Virus record (IMG/VR): IMGVR_UViG_3300029454_000001 | Coordinates: 14,344 to 78,343 of that record | Source of the DNA: a virus | DNA: 64,000 nucleotides | Reading direction: 5' to 3' (one strand) | Shown: positions 5,609 through 35,241 of the stretch, one piece after another | Layout: each line of letters begins with the position of its first letter | Position numbering within the stretch: the first letter of the stretch is position 1 | Position numbers and translations under genes: made by a program | The notes under the pieces: model-generated | Seen by the model: only the letters and a program-made list of their open reading frames with translations | What the model was told of the DNA's origin: nothing | Databases searched by the model: none

Positions 5609-5739
5609 ATAGATAACCTCCGTATTGGTTGTTGGCGTACCATGAACCGCCAGAATCCGTAATTATAAAACAGTGGACAGGCGTATTACGGTTTACGCTT
5701 TTCGGCGGCCAACCTAGCCCACTGGTTTTACCGAATTAA

Positions 5740-13925: not shown

Positions 13926-14441
13926 TTAGGAATAGAATACCTCTTTGGCAATTTTGCGGATATTCTGAATGATTTCTACGCTTGCCTTATACATTGGCAT
14001 TGTAGCTTCTGTACCGTAAGAACGTACCCATTCGCCGGAATCAGAAATATATACCCAGGAATCGTTTTTTCCTTTTCCTTGTCCGTAAGAACCGATTGTA
14101 TAACCAAATTCTTCTCCTTTTGGATGTGGGCTAGAACCGGCTGCACCATTGTGGTAAATACCAGCGCCGAATTCAATGAATAAAATGCTTTTGCCTTCGC
14201 ATATTAAATGGGCTTCTGCATAGTCCCCAAAACTGTTAATTTTGATGTAAGTATTGTGGTTCTTATCAGAATCGCCTTGTGCTGCCAAAATATTTTGGTC
14301 AATAACTGGAATCCCTAATTCACATAATCTTTTTATGAAAATTTCATTTTTGTTCCTTAAAGATTTTTGATAATTTTTTATTTCATCAATAGCTTTTTGG
14401 ATTGATTTCTGTGATAAGGTACACTTTATTGTCTTACCCAT
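13926..14441 (-). CDS. HK97 gp10-like head-tail joining protein
   Basis: FIEFGAGIYH...GTEATMPMYKA pattern; start ATG 14441 overlaps the upstream stop (ATGGGTAA) behind AGAGGAA. Confidence 0.5.
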   Translation of the reverse strand: MGKTIKCTLSQKSIQKAIDEIKNYQKSLRNKNEIFIKRLCELGIPVIDQNILAAQGDSDKNHNTYIKINSFGDYAEAHLICEGKSILFIEFGAGIYHNGAAGSSPHPKGEEFGYTIGSYGQGKGKNDSWVYISDSGEWVRSYGTEATMPMYKASVEIIQNIRKIAKEVFYS

Positions 14442-28309: not shown

Positions 28310-28897
28310 TCACGCTTTCTTGACTGGCCATTCAAAGCCAAAATCTGAACGTTTGATTTTGCATTGTGGGCTTCCGTCCTTCCAGAAAACTAATCCCTCT
28401 ATCTCGTGTTCGGAAAGATATTTCTTGATTCCATAAAATGTACGCTCGACTTCAACGATATTGTTGCCATGTCTTACTAAAGAATCATCATCGTCATAAT
28501 ATGGATTGCCTTGAAAATGCTTTCCGACAGCTTCATATGTGCCATCTGGTAATTTACAACCTTGATTTGTCCACATTGAAGTTACATAATACGCTTCTAC
28601 AAACCACTTATCAGACGGATTATTCTCATCAACCTTTACCCATCCCGGCCAATGACCTGTAATCGCATCTGGTTCGCAACAGGGAATAAATCCCTCTGGT
28701 GGTATTTTGCCCTTCTTGCAGTCGTATCGTTTATAAAATTTTCCGTCAATTACTGCACAGCAAGAGCCGTCGTATTTGACTGTTGCAATTCCTTCTCCTT
28801 CAAGTACCCATTCCATACCCGGATGCGCTTTCGGTAGAGTCTTTACAATCTTGTGGTCTTTGAATTCTCGCTCAAATAATGTTGGTATCTTTTTCAT
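28310..28897 (-). CDS. minimal ATP-dependent ligase-like nucleotidyltransferase (RNA-ligase-like)
   Basis: Motif I ATVKYDGSC (KxDG), motif IV EGLVFW, motif V CKIKRSDFG; at 195 aa it is too short to carry an OB domain. Confidence 0.55.
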   Translation of the reverse strand: MKKIPTLFEREFKDHKIVKTLPKAHPGMEWVLEGEGIATVKYDGSCCAVIDGKFYKRYDCKKGKIPPEGFIPCCEPDAITGHWPGWVKVDENNPSDKWFVEAYYVTSMWTNQGCKLPDGTYEAVGKHFQGNPYYDDDDSLVRHGNNIVEVERTFYGIKKYLSEHEIEGLVFWKDGSPQCKIKRSDFGFEWPVKKA

Positions 28898-30370: not shown

Positions 30371-30556
30371 TTATTCGATCTGGAAAAGCAAAGAGCAAAG
30401 CATTTTCTTTACAGATTCAATCATTACTGATGGTTTACTGTGTTCAATCCACTCTGCTACATCTTTTGCTAAAAACAGTGGTTTCTCTGCTTTTCCATAA
30501 ACACGAAACTGTTTTCCCAACACTTCTTGTTCATTTAATACTTTCAGTTCATTCAT
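30371..30556 (-). CDS. truncated Bro-N/antirepressor N-terminal domain protein
   Basis: FRVYGKAEKPLFLAKDVAEWIEH matches the Bro-N core, but the protein is only 61 aa. Confidence 0.45.
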   Translation of the reverse strand: MNELKVLNEQEVLGKQFRVYGKAEKPLFLAKDVAEWIEHSKPSVMIESVKKMLCSLLFQIE

Positions 30557-30723
30557 TTCTCTCTTTTCTCCCTATGCTTCATCTGACAGGCAATCATTTT
30601 AGCTATGTTTTCACGTTCCTGTTTTATTCCATGCCCCTGCCGGAACAATTCACATTCCAGAATCTGTCCACATTTGGAACATTCGTCTTTGATTTCTTTA
30701 CCGCATACTTCAATCATTTTCAT
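30553..30723 (-). CDS. small Cys-containing protein (56 aa, below the ORF-track cutoff)
   Basis: ATG 30723 overlaps the upstream stop and TGA 30555-30553 overlaps the next ATG; MKMIEVCGKEIKDECSKCGQILECE. Confidence 0.45.
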   Translation of the reverse strand: MKMIEVCGKEIKDECSKCGQILECELFRQGHGIKQERENIAKMIACQMKHREKREK

Positions 30724-31087
30724 CACCACAGTAAATCAATAAGTAATTTGCAATTTTTCTAAGATCATTTTTCCCATACAGACGAATTCCATCTTGCAAT
30801 CCTCTGTCAATCAGCCAATCAGCTAACTTTATTGGTTGTGTAGGTGGTTCATCTTTGGATTTTTCTATCTTAAAATCATCTATTAAACCACCTCTATTTA
30901 TAAGTTCAGAAAGTTCGCTCATCGGTACTATGCCTCCTTGTTTTCCATCTTCTTTTCCCGCCCTAAACTCGCAACAACACCCTGGCTCAGTAAAGTCTGC
31001 ACAATATTCACTATCGCCATTGAAGCAAACACATGTGAAGTTATCATGTTTTCTACAATTCTTGCAACATTTTTCTTCCATAAACAC
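30710..31087 (-). CDS. Cys-rich hypothetical protein
   Basis: 125 aa; CCKNCRKH..CVCFNGDSEYCADFTEPGCCCEF. Confidence 0.45.
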   Translation of the reverse strand: MFMEEKCCKNCRKHDNFTCVCFNGDSEYCADFTEPGCCCEFRAGKEDGKQGGIVPMSELSELINRGGLIDDFKIEKSKDEPPTQPIKLADWLIDRGLQDGIRLYGKNDLRKIANYLLIYCGDEND

Positions 31088-31198
31088 CTCTTGTTAAAAA
31101 AGTCCAGTGCGCCGACTTGAACGGCATAAATCTCCCAACGAGAAACACTGGAACTTTAAGGGGGAAAATGCAACTTCTGGCAATGGCAATTTTCCAGA

Positions 31199-31270
31199 TA
31201 GAAACAACAGGAATCGAACCTGTGTCACATGATATTCAATATCATTGCTCTACCACTGAGCTATGTTTCA
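31199..31270 (-). tRNA. anomalous class-I tRNA with anticodon UGA (Ser codon UCA) and a U1-U72 mismatch
   Basis: Minus strand TGAAACA-TA-GCTC-AGTGGTA-GAGC-A-ATGAT-ATTGAAT-ATCAT-GTGAC-ACAGG-TTCGATT-CCTGT-TGTTTCT-A; short variable loop, no encoded CCA. Confidence 0.6.
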
Positions 31271-31329
31271 TATCCCGCCTGTCACGGACAGTTCTTTTCA
31301 AAGGAACTGGGATGGGTTTCACTTTTGCT

Positions 31330-32781
31330 TCATTCGACAGTAATACAAGCGTATCTTTCTGAATTGATTGTGTTTTCCATAGCTTCAATCGGATTGTATC
31401 CAAGATTCTGTAAGATTTGTTTAAAAACTGTTACAGATTGACCACTTGCAAGTTGTACGCCTTTTCTCTTGGAATCTGCATGGAATACATCATGTCTGCT
31501 GTTTACATTCCAGAAGATAACGTTTGGAATAACATATCCAGATTTATGAAACTTGTTTGCCATCTTATCATAAAATGACCAATCTCGATTTCCACAATAA
31601 TCAATTTCCATATCAGAAATTACGACAATAGCTTTTGGCATTTCTTCCTGTGAAATATTATTTTTTTCTGCGATATCAAGCACCTTTTTAAATGCAGCTT
31701 TAAGGTTTGTACTACCGCCCCAATCTGCCCCTTTAGCATTATTGATTTTCTGTGAAAGGGTTTCACCCTTTAAAACAACTGTTTCTGGATTGCTCGAAAA
31801 TGTCATAAACAAATTGTGGTATGCCCCAACATTTCTTTCGGCAAAGTATATTGCCAATCCGATTGACGTTGCCATTGGTCTTCCGGTCATCGAACCGGAT
31901 ACATCAGCCATAATCAAAGCATTTGTTCCCTGTTCTATGTAATTTGGGAGTGCTTTCCATTGTGCTTCAAGAACTTTATTGTTCTCTCGTCCGTAAATGA
32001 TTTTTTCAACGATGTCATAAGGATACAAAGTTGAAGCGTTGATTTTAACTTCTCCTTTATCAGCCTTATTAATAAAATCATTAAATCCATCTGGATCATG
32101 TTTTGCAAAAGCTCTGCGATAAATCATCATTGCACGGCTCGGAACTTCTGGATATTTAATCTCATTCCATTTACCGGCAGACATAAGGCTTTCAACAACA
32201 CCGATCTGTTTTCTCATACTACGAACAATCCTTTTGAAGTTGTAGACTGGATAACCCAACTTCTGTGCAGTCAAGATTCCTAACTTCCTAGTTTCTCTGC
32301 TACTTGCATCAGCAGTCTTAATCCATTTAGCAAGTAAAGAAATCGCTTTTCCCTCATTAAGATTCTTCAAATCTTCCTCGAACTGAATCTTCATGGTTTT
32401 CCACATATCGTCTTCCATTGGTGTTCCAATCAGTTCATACAGATCATCGTATCTCCCGAATACTCCAATCAAGTCAAGATTCGGTCTAAGTGCTCCTGGA
32501 TGATGTTCAGCCATGTAACGGATAATGGTTCGGAAAGTTTTTCTCTCTCCAAGCCCGTAACGAATATCTCTTGCATAAAAAGCAATCTTTGTGGCAAAGA
32601 GTTTATCCTGTTCAAATGCTTCTGAGAATAAAGTGGTGATTCTATTTTCATCAGCTTCTCTCAATGCGCCAATAGTTCCGAACAGGTCAAGTCTTGCATC
32701 GCTTGTAGTATTCAGCGCAACTGCTCCGTTTTCGGTTCTTGTAAACTTGCTTTCTTCTTTCATTGCATTTGCAAAATCCAT
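31330..32781 (-). CDS. Ro60-like architecture protein: helical N-domain plus MIDAS vWA domain (DUF2828-type)
   Basis: 483 aa; MIDAS residues ADVSGSMTG, GGSTN, VISDMEID; I recognise the N-terminal helical region as DUF2828-like; SD AAAGGAGAA. Confidence 0.6.
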   Translation of the reverse strand: MDFANAMKEESKFTRTENGAVALNTTSDARLDLFGTIGALREADENRITTLFSEAFEQDKLFATKIAFYARDIRYGLGERKTFRTIIRYMAEHHPGALRPNLDLIGVFGRYDDLYELIGTPMEDDMWKTMKIQFEEDLKNLNEGKAISLLAKWIKTADASSRETRKLGILTAQKLGYPVYNFKRIVRSMRKQIGVVESLMSAGKWNEIKYPEVPSRAMMIYRRAFAKHDPDGFNDFINKADKGEVKINASTLYPYDIVEKIIYGRENNKVLEAQWKALPNYIEQGTNALIMADVSGSMTGRPMATSIGLAIYFAERNVGAYHNLFMTFSSNPETVVLKGETLSQKINNAKGADWGGSTNLKAAFKKVLDIAEKNNISQEEMPKAIVVISDMEIDYCGNRDWSFYDKMANKFHKSGYVIPNVIFWNVNSRHDVFHADSKRKGVQLASGQSVTVFKQILQNLGYNPIEAMENTINSERYACITVE

Positions 32782-32934
32782 GTTTCTTCTCCTTTCAGGA
32801 CACGAAAAATATAAAATATACGAATTAGATTTTATTTAAGTGAGTTGCTGTAAGCGTCCCATAAATTTCATGATGCTTTTGTGTTTCATAATTAAAAGTT
32901 ATGCCCAAAATGATTGCTGTAAGCATCACATAAT

Positions 32935-33023
32935 TGCCCCGACAGGATTTGAACCTATAAAATTATTTGCAGTGAAGAACACAAACATGTTCTAATCGGT
33001 TTTCCGTAACCGATAACCGGGGC
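32935..33023 (-). ncRNA. tRNA-like RNA A (89 nt, non-canonical)
   Basis: GCCCCGG acceptor arm, D-like arm ATCGG/CCGAT with a GG loop, T arm ATAGG-TTCAAAT-CCTGT. The anticodon-position hairpin AGAACA-TGTTTG-TGTTCT has a 6- or 8-nt loop. The acceptor plus T stack is one bp short. Confidence 0.45.
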
Positions 33024-33025
33024 AG

Positions 33026-33139
33026 TGACGAGGGATGGGTTCGAACCACCAACCTATGCCTTGTAATGGAGTAAATTGCTGTTATAGTCACAAACATGAC
33101 TAATATTCTCATTGCTCTGTCCAATTGAGCTACCTCGTC
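33026..33139 (-). ncRNA. tRNA-like RNA B (114 nt, extended anticodon-position arm)
   Basis: Canonical GACGAGG/CCTCGTC acceptor, GCTC-AATTGGACA-GAGC D arm and GGTGG-TTCGAAC-CCATC T arm. A 62-nt insert between them ends in hairpin TAGTCA-TGTTTG-TGACTA. It lies 2 nt from RNA A. Confidence 0.45.
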
Positions 33140-33198
33140 TAAAAACCAACAATAGCTATGCTAAAGTCAGATTTCCTATCTACACTTGGTAGATGGAA

Positions 33199-33270
33199 TA
33201 GCAGGAGACGGATTCGAACCGCCGTTTCCATGGATATGAGCCATGTGAGATTCCGCTTCTCTATCCTGCT
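33199..33270 (-). tRNA. tRNA with CAU anticodon (Met-type; could be Ile2)
   Basis: AGCAGGA-TA-GAGA-AGCGGAA-TCTC-A-CATGG-CTCATAT-CCATG-GAAAC-GGCGG-TTCGAAT-CCGTC-TCCTGCT-A. Confidence 0.8.
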
Positions 33271-33429
33271 ATGTACATGTTTGGAAGAACCATTTCAGCA
33301 CGTTCACTTATTGACTACTAGAGGAAGTCACTATATCACCGATAAACAGTACGTATTCGGAACTCGGTTATACATTCCTACGCACTGCTCTGTGCTTTTC
33401 CTACCACCAAACTTTCAGTCTCCAAACAA

Positions 33430-33498
33430 TCGGAAAGGATGGATTCGAACCATCAAGACCTAGTCGACTAGCCCGTTCCCAGTTACTTGCACTTTCCG
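33430..33498 (-). ncRNA. tRNA-like minihelix element D (acceptor plus T arm only)
   Basis: CGGAAAG/CTTTCCG acceptor and GATGG-TTCGAAT-CCATC T arm. The D and anticodon arms are replaced by CAAG...CTTG enclosing the palindrome CTAGTCGACTAG. Confidence 0.4.
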
Positions 33499-33789
33499 AA
33501 TAACCCGGTTCTTCCGGGTTAGCAATAGGTTTATCGTGTTATGCTTTCCACTATCTACAAGTTTTAGTGCTGTAGATTCACTGGATATTTTTATGCGTCT
33601 TAGAACGGCATCTCTTGAAAACTCCTTTTATTAACGTGCGCTGCGTTAATGTTTTTAACTCCGAGACATACCAGCCGGGAAATCAGATCCATTTAAGCTA
33701 CGCCGTATCGCACATAAATTTACCTAATCCACACACTCAACTGGAAGTTTTTTCCACCCATATTACGGATGAATGGCATTTAGAAGAAA

Positions 33790-33862
33790 TGGAAGCTCTG
33801 GGATTCGAACCCAGGACTTACGGCTTATGAGGCCGTTGCTCTTACCGCTGAACTAAGCTTCC
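33790..33862 (-). tRNA. tRNA with CAU anticodon (Met/fMet/Ile2-type)
   Basis: GGAAGCT-TA-GTTC-AGCGGTAA-GAGC-A-ACGGC-CTCATAA-GCCGT-AAGTC-CTGGG-TTCGAAT-CCCAG-AGCTTCC-A. Confidence 0.8.
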
Positions 33863-34011
33863 TGAGATACCAGAAATAAGCCCGCCATAGATTTATTTCT
33901 GGCACTGTTGCAGTTCTTGACCACCAACCGCAACAAAGGTTTTCTGAAACACTTTTAGATTTCAGAAAAGAGTGTTATAAAATGAACTTGCGGCATTAGC
34001 GAAACCGCAAA

Positions 34012-34084
34012 CTGGGCTAACTGGATTCGAACCAGCAAATGCAGCAGTCAAAGTGCTGTGCCTTAACCGTTTGGCGATAGCCCA
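34012..34084 (-). tRNA. tRNA-Gln (UUG)
   Basis: TGGGCTA acceptor with U1-A72 and G73, anticodon arm CAGCA-CTTTGAC-TGCTG, T arm GCTGG-TTCGAAT-CCAGT. Confidence 0.8.
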
Positions 34085-34300
34085 TCAACCCCGGCGCACC
34101 ATTAAAACCGGGGAAGTCGTGATATTAAGCTAAACAAGTATATAAAATAAGAGTTTCCGCTACTCTGGATGCCTCGACTTATCACTTTCATAGGCTTTCC
34201 CGAGCCTACATGGATTAAGTCGAAGCTGCGCTTTTATGAATTTAACCCTTTCGATTAACTCGATCGGGATAATTCCAATTGGAATCGGTAAATACATTTG

Positions 34301-34477
34301 TCACCTCGTGCAAATTAAGAAAATATTCAGTGCAAAACATATTTCTAAACAAATACAGAATAAAATCTGTATTACGCTTGTCTTTCCTTCTTCGTTCAGT
34401 ATTGCTAAAGTGCCAGCTAGAACCAGAACAAAAAATGCAAGATTTACAGCTGTTCCAATTACATTAAGTGCATTCAT
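34301..34477 (-). CDS. small membrane protein (58 aa, below the ORF-track cutoff)
   Basis: MNALNVIGTAVNLAFFVLVLAGTLAIL...; SD GGGAGGA 8 nt upstream of ATG 34477. Confidence 0.4.
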   Translation of the reverse strand: MNALNVIGTAVNLAFFVLVLAGTLAILNEEGKTSVIQILFCICLEICFALNIFLICTR

Positions 34478-34862
34478 TGTCTTTTTCCTCCCCGATTAAG
34501 AAGTCCAGAATTTTTTCTGCAATCTCTTCCTCTGGCTCAAATGGCATTCCACAGTAATTGTAGGATTCTAAAGCCGATTTTAGGCTTGATTTGAAACCAT
34601 TGTAAATCTCTCCATGTTGTAGTAATTCGTGCCTTAAAACACAAATTGCATCAGTAATTGATTGAGAAGTGACACTAATTTGTGCTAGGCACTCCATTTC
34701 AATGTCTGGAACAGCCATCATTTCAAACTCAAATACTGGAATTTCATCTACTGCGGTGTGGAAATCAACTGAGCGTACATTCGGAACTTTATTTCCATCA
34801 ATAAAACATTTTGTTCCACGCCAATCATAGGGGTTGGGGTTTGTGATCTTCACTATCGGCAT
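34464..34862 (-). CDS. hypothetical protein
   Basis: Start moved to ATG 34862 (MPIVKITNPN) behind AAAGGGG. Confidence 0.45.
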   Translation of the reverse strand: MPIVKITNPNPYDWRGTKCFIDGNKVPNVRSVDFHTAVDEIPVFEFEMMAVPDIEMECLAQISVTSQSITDAICVLRHELLQHGEIYNGFKSSLKSALESYNYCGMPFEPEEEIAEKILDFLIGEEKDNECT

Positions 34863-35241
34863 CTTCGTACCCCTTTCTTTTAGTTTCACAGTAGAGAAGA
34901 AGGTGTTTCGCAATCTCTTCCAACTGTAGAATGTTGTATTTTGGAATTTCCCATGTTTTTTGTTTCAATAGTGGGGAAAGTGGAATACCTTCATTTGGTA
35001 GTTCGCAAGTTACTGTGGCATTGATAATCATGGACGCTGTATCAATGGGAGATTCTGGAAAACTATCCTTATTATCACTTATTGGTACGTATAGCATGGA
35101 TAACTTTTTCCATTCTCCGTTTTCCTTTGAAAATATTTCTCCGTTTTGTACTTTAAGTGTTCTAATAGCTTCTCTTGAAATATCTTCTTCTTTTTCACAT
35201 TTACGAACATCATTCCCAATGATGTATAAAAAACAATTCAT
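34825..35241 (-). CDS. hypothetical protein
   Basis: 138-aa ORF; start overlaps the upstream stop. Confidence 0.45.
   Translation of the reverse strand: MNCFLYIIGNDVRKCEKEEDISREAIRTLKVQNGEIFSKENGEWKKLSMLYVPISDNKDSFPESPIDTASMIINATVTCELPNEGIPLSPLLKQKTWEIPKYNILQLEEIAKHLLLYCETKRKGYEDADSEDHKPQPL

Follow-up and report, generated by a model that had tools for sequence, protein, structure and literature searches.

Tandem tRNA-like RNAs that share a hairpin–ACAGCAA module lie beside a Ro60-like phage gene and are candidate Y-RNA-type partners of its product

We analyzed a 64,000-nucleotide (nt) stretch, hereafter the window, of the IMG/VR virus record IMGVR_UViG_3300029454_000001 (positions 14,344 to 78,343 of that record). 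Two abutting, oversized tRNA-like RNAs, here called RNA B and RNA A, are encoded on its minus strand, as an earlier note made from the letters alone had proposed, and both of the hairpins that it singled out are present. RNA A lies upstream of, and on the same strand as, a gene for a DUF2828 and vWA domain protein whose predicted structure resembles Ro60; 153 nt separate RNA A from the start codon. The two RNAs share a module, made up of a covarying hairpin (P2) with a CAU/GUG top, a spacer of about 4 nt, and a single-stranded ACNGCAA motif. Functional statements throughout this report are based on sequence, predicted structure, and gene context. Positions of the features are collected in Table 1.

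Neither RNA A nor RNA B was called when ARAGORN was run on the 64-kb window. The Rfam tRNA model (RF00005) matched RNA B with 46.7 bits (gathering score, 29), in agreement with the standard acceptor, D, and T arms that the earlier note had described, and 51 nt of RNA B stood in that alignment for the 11 anticodon-arm positions of the model. As encoded, the anticodon arm of RNA B is discontinuous, with 40 nt between its halves, and a canonical arm with a 5-base-pair (bp) stem and a 7-nt loop forms only after these are deleted. Removal of the insert (AGAAUAUUAG...AUUUACU) joins AUG to CCAUUACAAGGCAU and gives the arm AUGCC-AUUACAA-GGCAU; ARAGORN then reports a 74-nt tRNA-Val(tac) with U33, A37, and discriminator A. 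The shared hairpin had been placed at the anticodon position of RNA B, but it sits in the 40-nt insert, and the normal AUUACAA loop follows it. By inspection, the 5' and 3' ends of the insert base-pair to form a helix, P1, that bears P2, then UAUA, and then ACAGCAAU. Minimum-free-energy folds of RNA B and related precursors recovered P2 throughout and P1 in several relatives. The insert boundaries of RNA B are the sole pair that yields a 5-bp stem and a 7-nt loop, and because they are unambiguous, a target-site duplication can be said to be absent. Exhaustive interval deletion followed by ARAGORN was too permissive for placing boundaries and was replaced by this stricter stem/loop rule, which fails on the Pro-type RNA (variable loop of 6 nt); the Pro-type boundaries were settled by hand.

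RNA A is tRNA-shaped and has no anticodon stem-loop. The T arm has a UUCAAAU loop, and the GG of the D-like hairpin is invariant. Its length and its distance from RNA B had first been given as 89 nt and 2 nt; both change by one when the U1-A72 pair is counted (Table 1). Up to E=10, RNA A matched no Rfam family, tRNA included, and Rfam 15 holds no family for either RNA A or the insert of RNA B. Related loci supplied 19 distinct variants of the RNA A type, including a divergent one in L008 (loci fetched for comparison carry L numbers). In an alignment of 18 variants, 97% of cells were paired and two pairs had changed on both sides; such changes occur in the D-like stem and in P2. We read acceptor pair 7-66 (G-C to A-U) as a further compensatory change, the third, which an alignment shift masks. 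Since RNA A has the module without an anticodon arm, the module has a role that is independent of tRNA making.

Table 1. Features of the locus, with positions in the window. A slash marks a junction.
Feature	Positions	Strand	Description
RNA B	33026–33139	minus	114 nt; tRNA-Val(UAC)-type gene split by a 40-nt module; acceptor, D, and T arms normal; discriminator A
Intron-like insert of RNA B	33070–33109	minus	40 nt, in the 5' anticodon-stem strand between tRNA positions 29 and 30; carries the module
Exon-insert junctions of RNA B			GAGCAATG/AGAATATTAG and AATTTACT/CCATTAC
Exon-exon junction of RNA B after insert removal			GAGCAAUG/CCAUUACAAGG; also written GAGCAATG/CCATTACAAGGCAT
Module hairpin P2 of RNA B	33085–33102	minus	UAGUCA-UGUUUG-UGACUA; conserved top pairs C-G, A-U, U-G
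ACAGCAAU motif of RNA B	33075–33082	minus	4 nt 3' of P2; proposed recognition element of the Ro60-like protein
True anticodon loop of RNA B	33061–33067	minus	AUUACAA; anticodon UAC at 33063–33065; wholly downstream of the insert
RNA A	32935–33024	minus	tRNA-shaped; 90 nt counting the U1-A72 pair; starts 1 nt past the discriminator base of RNA B
Parts of RNA A	32942–32958 (T arm)		7-bp acceptor stem; 7-bp D-like hairpin with GG kept in the loop; 17-nt single-stranded stretch; T arm
Module hairpin of RNA A	32976–32993	minus	AGAACA-UGUUUG-UGUUCU; takes the place of the anticodon arm
ACUGCAAA motif of RNA A	32966–32973	minus	3' of the module hairpin
Leader of the Ro60-like gene	32844–32929	minus	two half-modules, GUGAUGCUU-ACAGCAAUC and GGGACGCUU-ACAGCAAC
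DUF2828 and DUF7788/vWA gene	31330–32781	minus	483 amino acids; proposed Ro60-like partner of RNAs A and B
RNA ligase gene	28310–28897	minus	195 amino acids; same gene block, 2.4 kb away; PHROG 14301 'RNA ligase', E=2.6e-55

The 10-mer CATGTTTGTG occurs at only two sites in the window, one in each RNA (our estimate for chance was ~0.1), and chance is ruled out for the shared hairpin because it is conserved. A scan of IMG/VR with the pattern CATGTTNGTG-N6-ACNGCAA returned at least 119 loci; 83 of the 119 listed have the module within a tRNA-like RNA, and the others match coding DNA by chance. A total of 93 distinct tRNA-like RNAs with the module came from phage contigs of gut and rumen origin, and three human fecal phage fragments in GenBank contain homologous oversized tRNAs. 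The module-bearing RNAs form tandem arrays, with up to five complete copies, just upstream of the DUF2828 and vWA gene. A covariance model of the gut-phage module, R1, detected the module of RNA A at 39.5 bits and gave up to six matches per locus, corresponding to five complete modules and a half-copy in the mRNA leader; it also detected many copies that deviate from the original search pattern.

Covariation, which the earlier note had named as a check, was found. In alignment A2, comprising 27 distinct module sequences, the P2 stem was 96.3% paired and four pairs had changed on both sides, across 40 cells. None of 500 shuffles scored as high, and sliding the pairing by 1 to 3 columns left 25–48% paired. 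Among more distant copies, the P2 loop, counted inside the closing pairs, varies in length (4 to 18 nt) and sequence (e.g., GUUY, UUCU, GCGACC, GGUUGACAGGA, and an 18-nt version). The constant parts are the C-G, A-U, and U-G pairs of the helix top and ACNGCAA, which is present in every module copy, though it belonged to the search pattern. The suggestion that the identical loops in RNAs A and B reflect selection thus holds for the shared element and not for the loop itself, the interior of which is variable.

The module-bearing RNAs fall into about 12 classes: Val(UAC), Pro(UGG), Ile(GAU), Gly(CCC), a UCC type, GGG types, a Thr(GGU)/GGA type, class-I bodies with GCU or UGA anticodons, and the RNA A type. 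Across the family, the insert is found from position 26/27 to about 32/33, always on the 5' side (stem strand, its base, or 5' edge of the loop), so that the anticodon loop is always downstream of it. Insert length is 40 nt in RNA B and 40–56 nt in relatives, and P1 is variable, the core being 11–16 nt from the 5' junction and 5–13 nt from the 3' junction by our count. The anticodon stem differs across the insert between lineages, with AUGCC/GGCAU in the window and GUACC/GGUAC in L001. Positional orthologues of module-bearing tRNAs have either AUGGUAA (GGU) or CUGGAAA (GGA) loops, with a compensatory stem change (L020 3000–4000, L031 6150–6900, L036 650–1500, and relatives); AAUCCAA, with A33, and one 6-nt variant are found in others. 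Some orthologues of RNA B are therefore unlikely to decode, since they have A33, a loop of 6 nt, or an anticodon that has switched between GGU and GGA. The anticodon arms of the class-I bodies match those of the phage's own long-arm tRNA-Ser, and GGUCUUGAAAACC is common to the module-bearing RNA of L008 and the phage tRNA-Ser(UGA). In the fetched loci, Val(UAC) lacks an ordinary tRNA counterpart, and Pro(UGG) and Ile(GAU) have a single one each, both in L119. No insert-free Val, Pro, or GCU allele was found in 2.9 million IMG/VR viral contigs with exact-junction patterns, which are strict and which diverged alleles may escape.

The protein encoded next to the RNAs matched DUF2828, DUF7788, and VWA_2 in Pfam, with a clear vWA domain, and PHROG 850, annotated 'RNA-binding protein'. 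Residues D293, S295, and S297 of the DxSxS metal site of the vWA domain did not vary among 13 diverse homologues. In Ro60, such a vWA domain follows a ring of helical repeats. The structure predicted with AlphaFold from a shallow alignment had a pLDDT of 58, and in a Foldseek search of the PDB with this pLDDT-58 model the eight best matches were all Ro60/TROVE proteins (~490–560 columns; E, 2e-6 to 5e-4; TM-scores, 0.36–0.48). These top matches included Ro60 of Thermus phage phiLo, Xenopus Ro60 with and without RNA, a Ro60/pre-5S rRNA complex, and Deinococcus Rsr, and proteins with only a vWA domain ranked lower. A second homologue search, with a diverse 13-sequence profile, recovered almost only the same gut-phage clade and did not deepen the alignment. 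DUF2828 homologues are present in 710 phage records covering many host genera, and some mycobacteriophage copies are annotated as 'Ro-like RNA binding protein'. Directly downstream of the gene in the window (31199–31270, minus strand) is a 72-nt class-I tRNA with a UGA (serine) anticodon, no long variable arm, and a U-U mismatch as its first acceptor pair; in L030, L049, L052, L091, L094, and L107, this tRNA has a UCA anticodon (opal-suppressor type) and C33 in place of U33.

Linkage between the RNAs and this gene is strict. The Ro60-like gene was present in 73 of the loci fetched at that stage, and the divergent module loci L008, L081, L103, and L119 encode it with 60–67% identity. An independent scan of bacterial genome contigs found seven real modules. 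Six were in contigs of Lachnospiraceae metagenome-assembled genomes (MAGs), and in 6/6 the gene was just downstream on the same strand; these contigs point to Lachnospiraceae as likely hosts. A module-bearing tRNA-like RNA was also seen near the end of a 3.3-kb stretch of L142, a rumen Paludibacteraceae MAG that represents a Bacteroidota bin outside the Lachnospiraceae-associated group. The RNA ligase gene of the window (Table 1) may belong to the same RNA-repair neighborhood as RNAs A and B. Its product weakly matches the human RNA ligase 1 family, Pfam RLIG1, in the C-terminal part of the model (195 amino acids versus 324 model positions). In the divergent loci L008 and L119, the fetched parts contained no RNA ligase or endonuclease gene next to the module.

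The mRNA leader of the Ro60-like gene contains two further copies of ACAGCAA (32914–32920 and 32845–32851), each 3' of a G-rich helix strand. The first half-module provides the 5' strand of a predicted 9-bp stem, GUGAUGCUU/AAGCAUCAU, that closes at 32870–32878, with the motif just inside the stem. This layout of helix strand, ACAGCAA, and loop is the same as that found beside homologous genes in cultured phages.

We examined the homologous gene and its flanks in 14 phages, either cultured or assembled, whose hosts span at least ten genera (Bacillus, Listeria, Mycobacterium, Escherichia, Fusobacterium, Prevotella [Lak], Enterococcus, Vibrio [two phages], Aeromonas, Campylobacter, Ralstonia, Staphylococcus, and Klebsiella). 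ACAGCAA was found in 37 copies on the gene strand versus 3 on the opposite strand, compared with 6.9 ± 2.6 (maximum, 16) in block shuffles; the counts refer to the surroundings of DUF2828-type genes. The copies concentrate in non-coding DNA beside the gene, often among tRNA genes, and can be clustered, with five in the 600-nt upstream gap of Vibrio phage MS02, three upstream in Listeria phage LP-083-2, and three downstream in the Staphylococcus phage. At 62% of sites, versus 7.8% at random, the strand directly 5' of ACAGCAA forms a Watson-Crick helix of at least 7 bp that closes 19–130 nt downstream; the sites without such a helix are mostly within coding sequences. R1 did not match in six cultured-phage loci, and the link to the cultured phages is made via the bare ACAGCAA only. 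RtcB or RNA ligase genes adjoin the homologous genes in Listeria and Klebsiella phages. In LP-083-2 (L124 2465–3016), a near-threshold ROOL RNA match (87.4 versus 99.1 bits) lies among tRNA genes ~1 kb upstream of the DUF2828 gene, and genes for an RtcB-like 'tRNA splicing ligase' and a phosphohydrolase lie just downstream.

In mycobacteriophage UPIE, a local search found a sub-threshold match to the Rfam YrlA model just 3' of the gene (39.8 bits versus a gathering score of 69; E=1.7e-7). Three ACAGCAA copies flank or abut this match, the 5' end of which abuts CAGCAAUU. Aeromonas phage Aeh1, which is T4-like, has a 122-nt annotated tRNA-Val(CAC) with encoded CCA (L131 7184–7305, equivalent to NC_005260 96384–96505). 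Its anticodon arm encloses a hairpin, GAAUC-UGAUUAA-GAUUC, followed by UUU and ACCGCAA, a module of the same kind, and the DUF2828 gene lies 2.7 kb upstream of it. As Aeh1 is a cultured phage, this tRNA-Val offers an experimental system. Judged by its sequence context, ACAGCAA is a candidate signature of the RNA neighbors of the DUF2828 protein family, with a probable role like that of GNCGAA for canonical Ro60 and YrlA (PMC4201824; PMC12135203).

Conservation of Ro60 and its Y RNAs extends from bacteria to humans, and in lupus and Sjögren's syndrome Ro60 is a major autoantigen. To our knowledge, the reason for the mimicry of tRNA by bacterial Y RNAs is still unexplained. We consider that RNAs A and B are probably Y-RNA-type partner RNAs built on tRNA scaffolds and that the module is the binding site of the Ro60-like protein. 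This is supported by the linkage of the RNAs to the gene, the Ro60-like character of the protein, the occurrence of the motif across the protein family, the sub-threshold YrlA match in UPIE, the anticodon-less RNA A, the probably non-decoding orthologues of RNA B, and the failure to find insert-free alleles. Of the three roles that the earlier note had suggested for the hairpin (protein-binding site, nuclease decoy, or expanded-loop decoder), protein binding fits best, given that the neighboring protein is Ro60-like and that its homologues are flanked by ACAGCAA RNAs; physical contact between protein and module is what this pattern leads us to infer.

Described systems offer partial precedents. 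YrlA Y RNAs mimic tRNA and are encoded within 4 kb of Ro60 on the same strand (PMC4201824). Like YrlA with its Ro60 protein Rsr (RF02553; Chen et al. 2014, PMC4201824), the RNAs described here are noncoding RNAs beside a Ro60-type gene on the same strand, with a tRNA-like body that has T and D arms and a protein-binding element, a proposed one in our case, off the anticodon-arm side; in both cases several RNAs per locus are possible, and RNA-repair genes are often nearby. Ro60 of Thermus phage phiLo is reported to bind Y-like RNAs encoded upstream of its own gene (PMC12135203). This system (Yrl1 and Yrl2; PDB 9KOP and 9L5Y) shares with ours a phage Ro60-type protein and partner RNAs upstream of the gene, and it provided the best structural match. 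Its RNAs differ in that they are described as stem/bulge/stem RNAs with CGAA, not tRNA scaffolds, and the two proteins are ~16% identical in the structural alignment. In phage Bas63, the gene for the Ro60-like protein gp130 is directly upstream of tRNA genes, some of which the authors guessed to be Y RNAs (preprint PMC11482910). This arrangement fits the present finding but gives no motif or structure. We found no published description of the module, the motif, or the tRNA-embedded arrangement in a literature search that was incomplete, so that a prior description is possible, and in that search no paper naming DUF2828 was relevant by title or abstract.

If RNAs A and B act as Y-RNA-type partners, the tRNA cluster, RNA B, RNA A, and the protein mRNA would be transcribed together. 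The tRNA shape would allow host RNase P and 3'-end processing enzymes to excise and stabilize RNAs A and B, as is established for YrlA. The protein would then bind the junction of helix and ACAGCAA, which would project from the anticodon-arm side, where canonical YrlA bears its Ro60-binding stem. More speculatively, the tRNA body could act as a tether between the protein and factors that handle tRNA, for example exonucleases, RNA ligase, or host anticodon nucleases, and the two leader half-modules could allow feedback control by the protein.

Several observations weigh against a Y-RNA-type role. The Rfam YrlA model (RF02553) had no match in window positions 30500–35000 up to E=10. The topology is unlike that of YrlA, whose 5' and 3' ends form the Ro60-binding stem and whose acceptor is closed by a loop; here, a normal acceptor stem contains the ends, and a hairpin loop caps the module. 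The motif is ACNGCAA (ACAGCAA in RNAs A and B) versus the canonical GNCGAA, which the YrlA stem carries as GNCGAA(N)G. In RNA B and several of its relatives, the 5-bp/7-nt anticodon arm has stayed perfect, with U33 and a purine at position 37, and no described Y RNA has a full anticodon arm. This retention and the compensatory stem changes are not obviously explained by a pure scaffold role and are explained by splicing. On the protein side, the model is poor (pLDDT and TM-scores as above), Pfam TROVE (PF05731) did not match this protein or three homologues up to E=10 (all four match DUF2828 and DUF7788), and no Ro60 emerged when PDB sequences were searched with either the protein or its profile. 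As sequence methods miss TROVE, we call the protein Ro60-like and not a member of the Ro60 family. Likewise, the RNAs are not filed as YrlA members because they do not have the end-formed GNCGAA stem or match the family model and because the protein fails the TROVE sequence test. Finally, part of the invariance of ACAGCAA and CATGTT.GTG is circular, since both were fixed in the first search pattern; the R1, cultured-phage, and MAG-contig evidence is independent of the CATGTT part, and the cultured-phage evidence is independent of the hairpin altogether.

An alternative that we regard as possible but unlikely is that the insert of RNA B is a genuine tRNA intron, whose removal by cleavage at both junctions, with religation, would give a working tRNA-Val(UAC). 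The module would be a splicing handle, used for example by the Ro60-like protein with an endonuclease and the nearby RNA ligase, and RNA A and the leader copies would be regulators or competitors. Exact removal at a single boundary pair gives a canonical tRNA not only in RNA B but likewise in the Pro(UGG), Ile(GAU), Gly(CCC), and other types, pairs 27–29 with 41–43 compensate across the insert between lineages, and ordinary tRNAs that could serve in place of the interrupted ones are few or missing from the fetched loci. The ligase gene of the window, the RtcB or RNA ligase genes near homologues in Listeria and Klebsiella phages, and the earlier report of tRNA introns in Lak megaphages (PMC6784885) also favor splicing.

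The insert has no known splicing signal, which speaks against its being an intron. Group I introns have a catalytic core of ~200 nt or more with conserved paired regions; at 40 nt, the insert is far too short for one, and it has no Rfam intron match. Archaeal and eukaryotic bulge-helix-bulge introns have two 3-nt bulges that contain the splice sites, separated by a 4-bp helix, and archaeal tRNA introns can occupy non-canonical positions. They resemble the inserts in being short, protein dependent, and located in anticodon arms, but they differ in that no such geometry is found at the junctions here and in that the hosts here appear to be bacterial. Neither minimum-free-energy folds of some relatives nor inspection of RNA B, both resting on energy-based predictions, revealed a bulge-helix-bulge, because P1 starts flush at the junctions. 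No simple splicing ruler is apparent, since insert position and junction-to-module distances vary. No splicing endonuclease gene was present among the 10 neighboring open reading frames scanned, and the lack of an endonuclease or ligase gene with the module in the fetched parts of L008 and L119 points the same way. In addition, A33 or a 6-nt loop is found in some orthologues, RNA A is excluded as a tRNA precursor, and the 2.9 million viral contigs yielded no insert-free allele.

The Lak 'enigmatic introns' (Devoto et al. 2019, PMC6784885) are likewise short conserved interruptions that make phage tRNA genes oversized and for which no splicing mechanism is known. A distant DUF2828 homologue (27% identity) is encoded by Lak phages as well, with one ACAGCAA and one ACCGCAA just upstream of its gene. 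The intron described there in tRNA-Tyr is 93 nt long and at the canonical site after position 37, whereas the inserts here are in the 5' anticodon-stem strand. The portion of Table S6 of that report that was covered contains no ACAGCAA or ACCGCAA, so we do not equate the Lak introns with the present inserts, and this counts against splicing of the latter.

The Y-RNA-type reading and splicing of RNA B are compatible and not exclusive. In a broader proposal, which we hold to be doubtful, the inserts would be a new class of protein-dependent tRNA intron in bacterial viruses, in which the Ro60-like protein recognizes the helix and ACAGCAA and licenses cutting and religation, for example by the phage RNA ligase; some tRNAs would be kept as inactive, nuclease-resistant precursors, and YrlA-like Y RNAs would descend from such interrupted tRNAs. 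If the inserts are indeed spliced, this would be a new route of tRNA splicing in the bacterial world.

Nuclease decoys, as raised in the earlier note, appear improbable. The module-bearing tRNAs would be baits whose intact anticodon stem-loops draw host tRNA-targeting nucleases, which the bound Ro60-like protein would sequester or would follow by directing repair. The match of class-I anticodon arms to the phage's long-arm tRNA-Ser, including the GGUCUUGAAAACC shared by the L008 RNA and tRNA-Ser(UGA), is in line with this, as are the anticodon switches between orthologues and the RNA-repair genes nearby. Ro60-like gp130 of phage Bas63 is reported to counter the Ppl defense system, but Ppl is proposed to act on DNA, not tRNA (preprint PMC11482910). 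The case is purely circumstantial, with no nuclease target identified, and RNA A offers no anticodon loop.

It is very improbable that the insert is a DNA-level element (a miniature transposon, homing site, or integrase target) that inserted into tRNA genes and does not function as RNA. A short palindromic element in many different tRNA genes could suggest one, but there is no target-site duplication, no empty sites were found with the exact-junction patterns, motif orientation follows the neighboring gene (37 versus 3), and the insert is always in the 5' anticodon-stem strand, at its base, or at the 5' loop edge. The compensatory changes in the hairpin, which include G-U pairs, point to selection on RNA. 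The remaining idea, that the shared hairpin serves as an anticodon loop, expanded to 8 nt or contracted to 6 nt, for quadruplet or unusual decoding, can be rejected: by inspection, AUGUUUGU read as an 8-nt loop does give U33 and a purine following a four-base anticodon, but the hairpin is on a side helix and not at positions 27–43, removal of the 40 nt restores a canonical 7-nt tRNA-Val(UAC) arm elsewhere in RNA B, the loops of relatives are 4–18 nt long and unrelated in sequence, and the same module is found in an mRNA leader, with its 3' motif beside homologous genes outside any tRNA.

The phage protein AcrIIIA1, which co-purifies with fragments of tRNA, was considered and dropped, its paper making no mention of Ro60, vWA, or TROVE.

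As Y-RNA-type partners, the RNAs described here would represent an intermediate form, in which real-looking tRNA genes with a module insert stand beside copies that have lost the anticodon arm, and this suggests an origin for tRNA-like Y RNAs. A candidate RNA signature, ACAGCAA beside a helix, makes the function of the large DUF2828 family directly testable. Such modules may also explain oversized or pseudo tRNAs in some phage genome annotations.

Other structured RNAs were noted in the window and in related loci. A weak tRNA-like RNA at 33430–33498 (minus strand; 27.1 bits, just below the tRNA threshold) has good acceptor and T arms, and the palindrome CUAGUCGACUAG replaces its anticodon arm. 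L001, L014, and L024 encode an RNA with nearly the same acceptor stem, which ARAGORN calls tRNA-Cys(ACA). In L003 (MT838775, a related fecal phage fragment), a RAGATH-21 RNA (1782–1858; 86.9 bits versus a threshold of 70.3) lies beside a tRNA cluster. An int-alpA RNA (RF02996) is present at window positions 5657–5724 on the minus strand (49 bits versus a threshold of 35.8).

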